A stretch of DNA of 64,000 nt, taken from positions 11,780,001 through 11,844,000 of the forward strand of contig OZ024763.1 of NCBI GenBank assembly GCA_964016885.1, read 5' to 3'. Below are positions 9,198 through 61,579 of this stretch, in pieces. The notes below the pieces were generated by a model. The model did not search any database and was not told the DNA's origin. It saw only the letters and a list, made by a program, of their open reading frames with translations. Within the stretch, counting starts at the first letter, position 1. Each line of letters opens with the position of its first letter. The DNA is from Eledone cirrhosa. Lineage: Eukaryota. The position numbers and the translations under genes are program-made.

Positions 9198-9733
9198 TAG
9201 ATTGTCAGTATCAGTAGAGGGTTGGACACCATGATTGGCAGTATCGGTAGAGAGTCGGATGCCATGATTGGCAGTATCGGTAGAGGGTCGGACACCATGA
9301 TTGTCAGTATCGGTAGAGGCTCGGACGCCATGATTGGCAGTATTGGTAGAGGGTCGGACACCATGATTGGCAGTATCGGTAGAGGGTCGGACGCCATGAT
9401 AGGCAGTATCGGTAGAGGGTCGGACGCCATGATTGGCAGTATCGGTAGAGGGTCGGACGCCATGATTGGCAGTATCGGTAGAGGGTCGGACACCATGATT
9501 GGCAGTATCGGTAGAGGGTCGGACGCCATGATTGGCAGTATCGGTAGAGGGTCGGACGCCATGATTGGCAGTATCGGTAGAGGGTCGGACGCCATGATTG
9601 GCAGTATCGGTAGAGGGTCGGACCGGACGCCATGATTGGCAGTATCGGTAGAGGGTCGGACACCATGATTGGCAGTATCGGTAGAGGGTCGGACGCCATG
9701 ATTGGCAGTATCGGTAGAGGGTCGGACGCCATG
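9198..9733 (+). repeat. 33-bp minisatellite (~16 copies) derived from the SINE B 5' head
   Basis: Unit CCATGATTGGCAGTATCGGTAGAGGGTCGGACG matches the SINE B head (compare 61088-61118, minus strand). Confidence 0.95.
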
Positions 9734-49781: not shown

Positions 49782-51188
49782 ACCTGGCTAGGAGAGCAGT
49801 AACTATTGTTAGACATAGCGAAGGCTACCTGGCTAGGAGAGCAGTCACTATTGTTAGACATAGCGAAGGCTACCTGGCTAGGAGAGCAGTGAGTCTGTAA
49901 GACATAGCGAAGGCTACCTGGCTAGGAGAGCAGTCACTATTGTTAGACATAGCGAAGGCTACCTGGCTAGGAGAGCAGTGAGTCTGTAAGACATAGCGAA
50001 GGCTACCTGGCTAGGAGAGCAGTCACTATTGTTAGACATAGCGAAGGCTACCTGGCTAGGAGAGCAGTAACTATTGTTAGACATAGCGAAGGCTACCTGG
50101 CTAGGAGAGCAGTAACTATTGTTAGACATAGCGAAGGCTACCTGGCTAGGAGAGCAGTCACTATTGTTAGACATAGCGAAGGCTACCTGGCTAGGAGAGC
50201 AGTCACTATTGTTAGACATAGCGAAGGCTACCTGGCTAGGAGAGCAGTCACTATTGTTAGACATAGCGAAGGCTACCTGGCTAGGAGAGCAGTGAGTCTG
50301 TAAGACATAGCGAAGGCTACCTGGCTAGGAGAGCAGTCACTATTGTTAGACATAGCGAAGGCTACCTGGCTAGGAGAGCAGTAACTATTGTTAGACATAG
50401 CGAAGGCTACCTGGCTAGGAGAGCAGTAACTATTGTTAGACATAGCGAAGGCTACCTGGCTAGGAGAGCAGTAACTATTGTTAGACATAGCGAAGGCTAC
50501 CTGGCTAGGAGAGCAGTAACTATTGTTAGACATAGCGAAGGCTACCTGGCTAGGAGAACAGTCACTATTGTTAGACATAGCGAAGGCTACCTGGCTAGGA
50601 GAGCAGTGAGTCTGTAAGACATAGCGAAGGCTACCTGGCTAGGAGAGCAGTCACTATTGTTAGACATAGCGAAGGCTACCTGGCTAGGAGAGCAGTGAGT
50701 CTGTAAGACATAGCGAAGGCTACCTGGCTAGGAGAGCAGTCACTATTGTTAGACATAGCGAAGGCTACCTGGCTAGGAGAGCAGTGACTATTGTTAGACA
50801 TAGCGAAGGCTACCTGGCTAGGAGAGCAGTCACTATTGTTAGACATAGCGAAGGCTACCTGGCTAGGAGAGCAGTGAGTCTGTAAGACATAGCGAAGGCT
50901 ACCTGGCTAGGAGAGCAGTCACTATTGTTAGACATAGCGAAGGCTACCTGGCTAGGAGAGCAGTGACTATTGTTAGACATAGCGAAGGCTACCTGGCTAG
51001 GAGAGCAGTCACTATTGTTAGACATAGCGAAGGCTACCTGGCTAGGAGAGCAGTCACTATTGTTAGACATAGCGAAGGCTACCTGGCTAGGAGAGCAGTG
51101 AGTCTGTAAGACATAGCGAAGGCTACCTGGCTAGGAGAGCAGTCACTATTGTTAGACATAGCGAAGGCTACCTGGCTAGGAGAGCAGT
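49782..51188. repeat. 45/44-bp minisatellite, ~31 copies, two interspersed unit types
   Basis: ACCTGGCTAGGAGAGCAG + (TCACTATTGTT or TGAGTCTGTA) + AGACATAGCGAAGGCT. Confidence 0.97.
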
Positions 51189-58350: not shown

Positions 58351-58810
58351 TTAACTTTTCCTCACTAAGAGTGAATCTAAGATTTGCAATTTGTCTTAGC
58401 TGCCATCTTGTTCTTCTGTTTCTTTCTTCACACACACACTCACTTAAGCACTGTTTCTATTTATTTTACATTTTCTTGCACTATTTATTTAACCATTTTG
58501 TTGCCATTTAAAAATCAACATATGGCTGGTTTCTCATCCATAAAACAGTCTACATGTTCTACCTTGTTTGATAACGCTTCAGTTAACCTGTCATTCTCTT
58601 GCTGCACCACTGATGGCTTCAGACTCAGTGGAGCACTTATAACTGGCACTCCGTCAGTTACAACAGATACGATCAATGGAACAGCCTGCTTGTAAAATTA
58701 TCTCGTAAGTGGCTGATTATTCCATAGACACACAAACCCTTAATGTAGTTCTGAAAGGGATTCAGCTTGACACACAATGTGACATTGCTGGCCCTTTGAA
58801 TTACAGAGGT

Positions 58811-59609: not shown

Positions 59610-60062
59610 CAAGGAAACAACAAACAGAGGTACAAATGTCTTATTAGTTTCATGCTTTATATGGAAAAGGGGAAAGAAAGTTTGAGGTGTCGGGCTTGAT
59701 GTGCCCTTCTTCAGGAGTACAGAAATAGAGAGGGGATCACAAAGTATAGATACAGAAAATAGAAAAGGTAGTCCAAGTAAAGAAAAAAAAAAAGAAGAAA
59801 ATTGTGTGTGTGTGTGTCTGTGTGTGTGAGAGAGAAAATGTTTCATGCTGATAAGTGATAGCTGTTAAGAAGGGCAAGAAGCTTTAGAAAACTTGCCAAA
59901 AACTGGAATGTCTGGGCAAGACAGCATGTTGTGGGCCTTCAACACATCTGGTATTCACCCTAAACAACCTCTCTGTCATATGGCACCGTGGAAAATGGAC
60001 ATTTGATGAGATATAGGCATGTAGATATACACTTCGGCTGTTAGGACACCTCTTACTATATA

Positions 60063-60113
<51 letters not shown>

Positions 60114-60331
60114 GTCAAAGATGTACATCCATATATGTATACTGAAATACTAGTATGTATATGAATACACACACGTATACATATGTAGATGTACCAAGTT
60201 TTTTTTCACTGATCACTTTACTGTGAGTGGCCAGCTATTCTGTATGTAAACACACAGACAAACCGGTTTTTAGAGTCATACTGGTTTTTGAGGAAACACC
60301 TTTCCTCTATTCTCCAGAAAGCCAGACAAGG

Positions 60332-60376
60332 AATATTGAACTAGTTTCGTTGTTGTTACAACTCATCAGCAATATT
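60332..60376 (-). ncRNA. Minimal type-I hammerhead ribozyme, complete
   Basis: AAUAUUG-CUGAUGA-GUUGU(AACA)ACAAC-GAAA-CUAG-UU^CAAUAUU. Confidence 0.9.
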
Positions 60377-60800
60377 TACCTATCTTCCGGCCTCTCTAGA
60401 GAATCGTAAAAGCACATATCGCTATATGCTTTTTCTATGAAAATTAGTAGTGGGCAGACCAACTTGCATAGAGTGTGAGTAAGTACCGGTTCAACGGAGA
60501 CGATAAAAACAAATAACGAAACGAAATTAAATTTCGTTTCGTTTGTAACTCACTTTTGTATGACTGACGCTCAAACAATTAAGTCAAAGATGTACATCCA
60601 TATATGTATACTGAAATACTAGTATGTATATGAATACACACACGTATACATATGTAGATGTACCAAGTTTTTTTTCACTGATCACTTTACTGTGAGTGGC
60701 CAGCTATTCTGTATGTAAACACACAGACAAACCGGTTTTTAGAGTCATACTGGTTTTTGAGGAAACACCTTTCCTCTATTCTCCAGAAAGCCAGACAAGG

Positions 60801-60845
60801 AATATTGAACTAGTTTCGTTGTTGTTACAACTCATCAGCAATATT
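60801..60845 (-). ncRNA. Minimal type-I hammerhead ribozyme, complete (second unit)
   Basis: Identical to 60332-60376. Confidence 0.9.
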
Positions 60846-61002
60846 TACCTATCTTCCGGCCTCTCTAGAGAATCGTAAAAGCACATATCGCTATATGCTT
60901 TTTCTATGAAAATTAGTAGTGGGCAGACCAACTTGCATAGAGTGTGAGTAAGTACCGGTTCAACGGAGACGATAAAAACAAATAACGAAACGAAATTAAA
61001 TT

Positions 61003-61124
61003 CAGTGTATTACTGGTACTTTATTTTATCGACTCCGTAAGGATGATAGGCAAAGTCAACCTCGGCGGGATTTGAACTCAAACCATAGCGTCCGACCCTC
61101 TACCGATACTGCCAATCCACCGCC
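61003..61124 (-). mobile_element. SINE family B 5' part (tail missing)
   Basis: GGCGGTGGATTGGCAGTATCGGTAGAGGGTCGGACG...GAGTTCAAATCCC...AAAGTACCAG. Confidence 0.88.
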
Positions 61125-61579
61125 CAAGTATGGGCGAGGTTTCAAATTTTCATTAGGTTCATTCAGGTGTGACACATGTTTCGCAGTTGATCAGCTCAAG
61201 GTTCAGTCTGTATCAATCAGGCCCTACTCTGGAACCCAAAACCCATCAGACTTCTGTTGGTGCCACCACACACACACACGTGATATTTTATAATGTGGTG
61301 GTACAGAGAAGATAGACAATAATGTAGAAAGGACAAAGACCAACATTTAAGCAATTTCTATTCCTAACCATGAAATGTTTCTTCTTTGCTGTTTTTGCAT
61401 TACTGTATGAGAGGGGGGGGGCAGACAGAGAGAGGGGGGGGGGACAATAGATGTACAATTTATTGTTACATGAAACATCAACAAGAGATATATTTTTGTC
61501 TGGCTTTTAAATTAATTCTTTTATGATGTTTAATTTGACTTTTGTTTCTTCTTAAATAAATATAATTATTTCACATCCT

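Follow-up and report, generated by a model that had tools for sequence, protein, structure and literature searches.

The 64,000-nucleotide stretch of Eledone cirrhosa DNA analysed here (the window) carries a copy of a repeat which, judged from its sequence, belongs to a large and young family of non-LTR retrozymes. The family combines the features of non-LTR retrozymes with the full insertion footprint of non-autonomous Penelope-like elements (PLEs). We are confident that it is mobilised by PLEs. In the reading we favour, the reverse transcriptase (RT)-endonuclease of an autonomous PLE inserts the retrozymes into (TA)n tracts through two primings on one, probably circular, RNA.

The window copy and its hammerhead ribozymes

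The window comes from the 3.0 Gb E. cirrhosa assembly; its full unit lies on the minus strand, with unit position 1 at 60576 and position 469 at 60108. The following features were mapped:

60108..60576, minus strand: full 469-bp unit, identical at many other loci
60577..61002, minus strand: 5′-truncated second copy with unit positions 44-469 and without 1-43; 426/426 bases identical
60503..60576, minus strand: 74-nt "tail" segment between the two fixed 3′ ends of the family (at 74 or 469 across loci), internal here
60316..60387, minus strand: type I hammerhead of the downstream copy (HH9, motif scan, covariation), core starting at 60369, predicted cut at 60339/60338 after GUU
60785..60856, minus strand: type I hammerhead of the upstream copy (HH9 and motif scan), core starting at 60838, predicted cut at 60808/60807
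60339..60807, minus strand: predicted 469-nt monomer, multibranched and closed by stem I (folding)
60058..60107, no strand: (TA)n target adjoining the no-tail 3′ end at 60108 (sequence)
61003..61130, minus strand: truncated sequence at the 5′ junction, which we take to be SINE-like; other copies run beyond 61003 in contigs of other runs

The earlier note on this DNA, made from the sequence alone, had described two head-to-tail copies without any difference. The tandem arrangement, the period of 469 and the identity of the copies (60108-60533 equals 60577-61002 over 426/426 bases) were reproduced, while the count is corrected to 1.9 copies, one full and one truncated. As also described there, the 3′ end joins (TA)n, with the junction at 60108, and there is no credible ORF: the unit (GC 0.36) holds only one 60-aa stop-to-stop frame without Met. 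No RT + GIY-YIG ORF on the same strand was found between window positions 50000 and 64000. Neither an inverted arm nor a target duplication is visible at this locus, and the 5′ end is joined to the truncated SINE-like sequence. What the window holds is one arm with a no-tail end, and the absence of the second arm and of the target duplication is most simply explained by a deletion at or after insertion.

Several other observations were made in the window. Positions 9200-9733 hold 16 tandem copies of a 33-bp piece of the SINE-like head that also flanks the unit, at 61070-61130. About 400 bp from the unit, at 59690-59716 (minus strand), a CTGAAGA followed by a short stem and GACA was seen by eye and looks like a decayed minimal PLE-type hammerhead. 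A 60-aa frame of ordinary composition at 58515-58697 (minus strand) is possibly an exon, in which case the retrozyme insertion would sit in or near a gene. Rfam miRNA matches in the window were (TA/CA)n artefacts. Two candidate routes of transcription were considered. Runs of T terminate Pol III, and read-through from the neighbouring SINE-like head was rejected because T4-T5 runs precede the first hammerhead. The octamer ATGCAAAT, found in most subfamilies, is a lead to an snRNA promoter of the newt satellite-2 type, but the motif sits in a stem and such a promoter is not claimed; a literature search on this lead found no paper.

In agreement with the earlier description, each copy contains a complete minus-strand hammerhead, composed of stem I (AAUAUUG/CAAUAUU), CUGAUGA, a 5-bp stem II, GAAA, the palindromic ACUAGU of stem III and U17. 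The predicted cuts lie 469 nt apart, after unit position 238, as had been proposed. The motif is not of the "minimal" PLE type named in the earlier note: stem II is full, stem I is long, with an internal loop and an extension, and only stem III is short. Among the Rfam hammerhead models, HH9 recognises each of the two copies with 37.7 bits (E 8.6e-07), which falls short of its gathering score of 52. The hammerhead stems were also examined for covariation, using 7 family-A monomers and 5 monomers of a sister family, B. Between the two families 7/19 pairs changed on both sides, with 90.4% of cells pairing, and the covariation score of 0.392 compared with 0.187 in shuffles (0/500 reached it) and with 0.03-0.17 when the structure was slid; the monomers fall mostly into two clades, so that these values reflect few independent events.

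Folding of the monomer gave -156.3 kcal/mol (z -11.0, 0/100 shuffles as stable), to which AT-rich hairpins contribute, and the predicted fold brings its two ends together at stem I. For the window dimer, i.e. the stretch with both ribozymes, the minimum-energy fold is a double hammerhead in which one palindrome pairs with the other. As a cleavage triplet, GUU is poor. U17 is moreover predicted to let the palindrome pairing extend to AACUAGUU, taking in A14 and U17, and this sequestration would make cutting slow. According to these models, the dimer would probably cleave as a double hammerhead, and slowly.

The family and its insertion footprint

The young, non-coding, ribozyme-bearing mobile repeat proposed in the earlier note is supported by genome-wide data. 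The 45-nt hammerhead of the window's family, A, is present in 4,843 exact copies and a wider hammerhead pattern gave 39,091 matches genome-wide, with 0 matches for the reversed-pattern controls of both. A search with the unit returned 311 matches in 38 scored of 297 candidates. Genome-wide, the tail meets (TA)n at 1,464 junctions. For the no-tail end, 782 junctions were counted on the forward strand, whereas the figure of 1,405 for the reverse strand includes overlapping duplicates. The family occupies over a thousand sites of the genome. The family occurs on many contigs, in subfamilies 86-100% identical to the window unit and with up to 30 full units per arm.

Family B, which was met by chance in other loci, has 422-538-nt units that are homologous to those of family A along their length (monomer fold z -7.5), a GUA triplet and, in most copies, U-U at the first stem II pair (L217:3082-3503, L111:7734-10000, L112, L095, L220 and others). 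By eye, and with a noisy end analysis, its insertions are likewise two-armed, and their tail, 62 nt long, stops at the position homologous to that in family A. Family B probably outnumbers family A.

Sequence related to the unit was also met outside the assembly. Contigs of runs X4 and X12, which may be DNA or RNA runs, close on the 469 period and are not taken as RNA circles. In three runs from outside the assembly the unit occurs at about 97-99%, accompanied by the SINE-like repeat. A near-identical sequence is listed in runs of 17 organisms, with comparison covering three of these holders; no RNA data set is among those listed, which bears neither way on expression. The variants in runs X5 and X12 agree with those of an older subfamily within the E. 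cirrhosa genome. For X21 (organism D), the raw reads gave 0 matches to the unit and likewise 0 to the SINE-like part, so that this zero carries no weight as a test. Some listed holders may lack the unit in their own genome, with shared ancestry, transfer or contamination as possible sources.

Insertions were mapped in three sets: 37 top-scored loci, 30 position-ordered loci on contig 1, and 20 loci anchored on tail ends. A typical insertion consists of a minus-strand and a plus-strand array joined head-to-head by their 5′ ends and lying in (TA)n. Such two-armed, one-tailed arrays were absent from the earlier note, and no LTR-like arrangement was seen in the top-scored set. The 3′ ends lie at unit position 469 (plus 0-4 nt) or 74, giving two fixed ends 74 nt apart, and the no-tail site is the apex of a small hairpin kept in families A and B. 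One tail and one no-tail end were found in 26/37 top-scored loci, while 10, including the window, had one end only and one ran into a gap. Corresponding figures for the position-ordered set were 22/30 with both kinds of end, four with one end and two rearranged; L214 had two no-tail ends, and L204 was tail/tail by script and tail/no-tail by eye. From coordinates alone, 30/32 head-to-head end pairs were mixed (p 1.2e-7), the pairs being those within 16 kb in the first 130 Mb of contig 1, which overlap the position-ordered and tail-anchored sets; the lone tail/tail pair among them turned out to be two separate insertions. Typed 3′ ends were followed by (TA)n in 52/60 cases in the top-scored set and 45/49 in the position-ordered set. 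Target duplications could be seen at three non-microsatellite sites (L040, 12 bp; L045, 16 bp including an overlap with the element end; L053, 12 bp); elsewhere they are hidden by (TA)n.

The 5′ ends are spread over the unit. Only 1/61 and 0/51 of them fall within positions 234-244, where the ribozyme cut lies, an avoidance no greater than chance; as the ends are seldom at the cut, cut linear monomers are not the template. At the head-to-head junctions of the top-scored set we observed overlaps of 1-15 nt in 16/24 and short inserts in 5/24, as delimited by BLAST ends. Twin priming of the L1 type on linear RNA was rejected, given that the 5′ ends are not at the priming site of the other arm. 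The median arm of the position-ordered set measures 561 bp and the longest arm 14.3 kb, with 30 units; arms of the youngest subfamily reach 13 near-identical units on either side. The 14.3-kb arm, in L215+L216 (G000:C1:5.738-5.753 Mb), faces a 346-bp arm, and variant blocks recur in it. The insertions L303 and L304 look identical, lie 17.5 kb from each other and probably reflect a segmental duplication.

Comparison of arms bears on whether the two primings used the same RNA. In the position-ordered set, arms of the same locus differed by 0.39% and arms of different loci by 3.0%, the own arm being among the nearest in 15/18; in the top-scored set the concordance was uninformative (0.24% vs. 0.29%). 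Rare variants are common to both arms in L052, L061 and L067, and in L197+198 the 18 full units over both arms show no unshared substitution. This likeness favours both primers having used one RNA, and we consider it likely that both arms are copied from a single molecule; a dominant source locus in the RNA pool, or gene conversion, could also make arms alike. Arm lengths were uncorrelated (rho 0.18 and 0.08). Within single arms, variants recur with periods of 2-4 units (L037, L042, L207, L211+212). In L049:1044-5172, five units of a 96% subfamily are followed in the same arm by the main subfamily before the head-to-head junction, likely a template switch between two RNAs. The periodic variants, this switch and the uncorrelated arms speak against a simple monomer circle and indicate that multimeric templates or later block duplication also contribute.

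PLEs of the genome and a proposed mode of mobilisation

Among the 10,596 GIY-YIG candidates of the genome is a young autonomous PLE (L171-L190, e.g., L179:3815-6517) with intact 900-aa RT + GIY-YIG frames, six copies of which are 99.2-100% alike. Of its loci, 18 were fetched, chosen for long frames or opposed pairs, and 12/12 two-ended ones had one tailed and one untailed arm, with a (TA)n target. The tail is 40 nt long, and multi-unit arms extend up to 8.4 kb, so the enzyme class can make such lengths. The element carries a variant hammerhead core, CCGAAGA, and a palindromic AAUU stem III. Comparison with the retrozyme unit revealed no shared sequence, and the tails are unlike in sequence. 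By age and footprint, this PLE is the best candidate for the mobiliser.

Constant linkage to a Penelope ORF, which according to the earlier note would make the unit an ordinary pseudo-LTR (pLTR), was not observed: BLAST of the dimer against 50 GIY-YIG loci, taken from the 10,596 candidates, detected only retrozyme inserts and no pLTR match. In L111 and L112, where pieces of the retrozyme lie near PLE ORFs, these pieces had inserted separately into (TA)n. No ACUAGU hammerhead was found when the sequence downstream of 30 GIY-YIG matches was scanned. Patterns with other stem II lengths, followed up at 60 loci, yielded indel variants of the retrozyme, a motif from LINE coding sequence and old, isolated motifs at scattered sites, and no parent; 12 of the 60 were read by eye, L263 alone having an opposite-strand PLE match. 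Folded tail regions of the 900-aa PLE and of one Neptune-like family had no structure in common with the unit. Other PLE families were encountered at L101, L102, L106, L109, L110 and L112 and at L104 and L108, presumably Neptune-like given their CxxC motif. One Neptune-like family has a non-canonical hammerhead-like motif in its pLTR, and another a hammerhead also with U17 and a tail of about 50 nt. Of the choice posed in the earlier note between a retrozyme and a Penelope element, the retrozyme stands but the opposition does not: the data point to a retrozyme mobilised by PLE machinery.

The mechanism we propose would proceed as follows. Arrays would be transcribed, and adjacent hammerheads, paired through their palindromic stems III, would cleave as a double hammerhead, probably at a low rate, as folding predicts. 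The 469-nt monomer, its ends meeting at stem I, would be ligated into a circle, by analogy with the retrozymes of coral, mussel and axolotl. A PLE protein would then nick the two strands of a (TA)n target. Priming from the first DNA end would occur at the hairpin apex (unit position 469, with 0-4 extra nt) and from the second 74 nt beyond it, at the two end positions observed in the genome. Both polymerases would travel upstream for one or more rounds, presumably as a rolling circle, and stop at random, in keeping with the scattered 5′ ends. Finally, the two cDNAs would be joined head-to-head via short overlaps or short insertions such as those at the junctions. Biochemical data exist for parts of this scheme. 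In vitro, a PLE nicks each of the two target strands and extends it, with synthesis beginning at two internal sites that delimit the tail (PMC11167929). Other results run against the scheme. The RNA used in those reactions was uncut, and the Anolis PLE preferred unprocessed RNA (PMC11167929); of nine Xenopus retrozyme dimers, eight did not cut in vitro (bioRxiv 10.64898/2026.07.22.740005). As to the form of the template, we lean towards a circle. A more specific version, which we offer as possible but doubtful, is that a dimer of the PLE protein grips one circular RNA at the tail and primes both nicked strands at the two fixed sites 74 nt apart, so that two rolling-circle cDNAs result and, once joined head-to-head, give the long palindromic arrays in one step. 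If true, one mechanism would account for the PLE tail, the inverted arm and the tandem arrays of retrozymes, and the 469-nt RNA would provide a natural substrate on which to test it, its outcomes being recorded tens of thousands of times in the genome.

The repeat may instead be a non-autonomous PLE derivative whose long, uncut linear multimers are copied by the same enzyme, the hammerhead being weak or dispensable and circles not being the template. Ends that ignore the cut site fit uncut linear RNA as well as a circle, variants are periodic within arms, the palindrome with U17 would slow cutting, and the Anolis enzyme favours unprocessed RNA in vitro (PMC11167929). We nevertheless regard this reading as unlikely. 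It would require RNAs for 14.3-kb, 30-unit arms to stay entirely uncut; it has to meet the 18 full units of L197+198 without an unshared substitution; and compensatory change keeps the hammerhead stems across families.

Array length raises another alternative, in which the PLE enzyme delivers two-armed inserts of about one unit and the arrays grow later by unequal crossing-over or slippage, as minisatellites do. A local amplification scenario has been proposed for Xenopus (bioRxiv 10.64898/2026.07.22.740005), and the short median arm, the blocks of period 2 and period 3 that occur in a single arm (L037; L211+212) and the heterogeneous 30-unit arm of L215+216 are what such growth would leave. 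Against it, arms of the youngest subfamily already comprise up to 13 near-identical units on either side, and the autonomous PLE itself inserts multi-unit arms of up to 8.4 kb. Growth after insertion as the origin of the arrays is therefore decidedly improbable in our view.

It is very improbable that the unit is the pLTR of an autonomous PLE that was not seen, with the arrays as its by-products. The full PLE footprint would suit such a parent, and the parent screen covered 50 of 10,596 GIY-YIG candidates. However, at the 87 mapped family-A loci (37 + 30 + 20), judged at the nucleotide level, the units read run into the next unit or the mapped end, the exceptions being a few interrupted arrays (L226, L291, L298, L309), and the subfamilies at 86-100% together with sister family B show that the unit has long evolved independently as a closed entity. 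An assembly artefact, which the earlier note had named as a threat to the duplication, is excluded: the genome has thousands of copies, the controls gave 0, and in contigs of two other runs the unit closes on its own period. With the covariation added, artefact or chance fold has a negligible chance of explaining the data.

The PLE-mediated insertion of retrozymes that we favour matters in several respects. A complete PLE footprint, in a genome whose active PLE inserts in the same fashion, bears on which enzyme moves animal retrozymes, and the arrays bear on whether such repeats arise at insertion or grow later. The rule of one tail per insertion, together with variants common to both arms, limits the ways in which reverse transcription by PLEs can be primed. 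The unit also offers a small natural RNA for in vitro studies of a PLE protein, and the 900-aa PLE of the L179 type is a good candidate for biochemistry.

Comparison with known retrozymes and PLEs

With metazoan non-LTR retrozymes (PMC7229834) the family shares tandem non-coding units with a type I hammerhead each, GC below 50%, a highly paired monomer and target duplications of more than 4 bp. Like the amphibian ribozymes of that report, its hammerhead has a short stem III, for which a dimer is predicted to be required. The unit is slightly longer, at 469 bp vs. 150-450 bp, and inserted as two arms with one tail in (TA)n, whereas the word "inverted" does not occur in the main text of that paper. 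Cleavage and circles were demonstrated there for the coral, mussel and axolotl retrozymes (PMC7229834), while here they are predicted from sequence and folding. Hammerhead counts given for mussel (about 5,000), coral (over 6,000) and axolotl (126,247) place the roughly 39,000 found here near the upper end of those reported in that source (PMC7229834), which also calls PLEs "a strong candidate" for the mobiliser of retrozymes.

Like the retrozymes of Xenopus (Li, Clavereau, Pollet 2026; bioRxiv 10.64898/2026.07.22.740005), those of E. cirrhosa appear non-autonomous and PLE-dependent, and PLEs co-occur with them. The Xenopus evidence consists of this co-occurrence, likeness to pLTRs and phylogeny; ours consists of the insertion footprint, with no pLTR likeness. 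In the available text of that preprint "tail" appears 0 times and "inverted" once, in the title of a reference. Our literature search, with subscription literature and Repbase mostly outside it, found no paper on a two-armed, one-tail footprint in retrozymes and none on an octopod retrozyme.

The footprint itself is that described for EN+ PLEs, namely partial tandems, an inverted 5′-truncated copy, a tail of 30-40 bp that is often present at a single end, and (TA)n targets (Craig et al. 2021, PMC8557442), all of which are shared apart from the tail length. The two fixed 3′ ends resemble the start sites of the PLE RT that bound the tail (Frangieh et al. 2024, PMC11167929). Unlike EN+ PLEs, the unit has no ORF, its tail measures 74 nt (62 nt in family B) instead of 30-40, and the whole 469-nt unit repeats (PMC8557442). 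The near-strict one-tail rule also differs from the in vitro data, which showed no strand difference in the start site (PMC11167929). A further parallel is provided by the Chlamys elements, e.g., MRC1, which are non-coding PLE parasites with multicopy head-to-tail insertions; these resemble the 3′ end of their autonomous partner, and most are without canonical hammerheads (PMC8557442). The kind of element described here is already known; what is unusual is the clear mechanistic read-out that its insertions provide.
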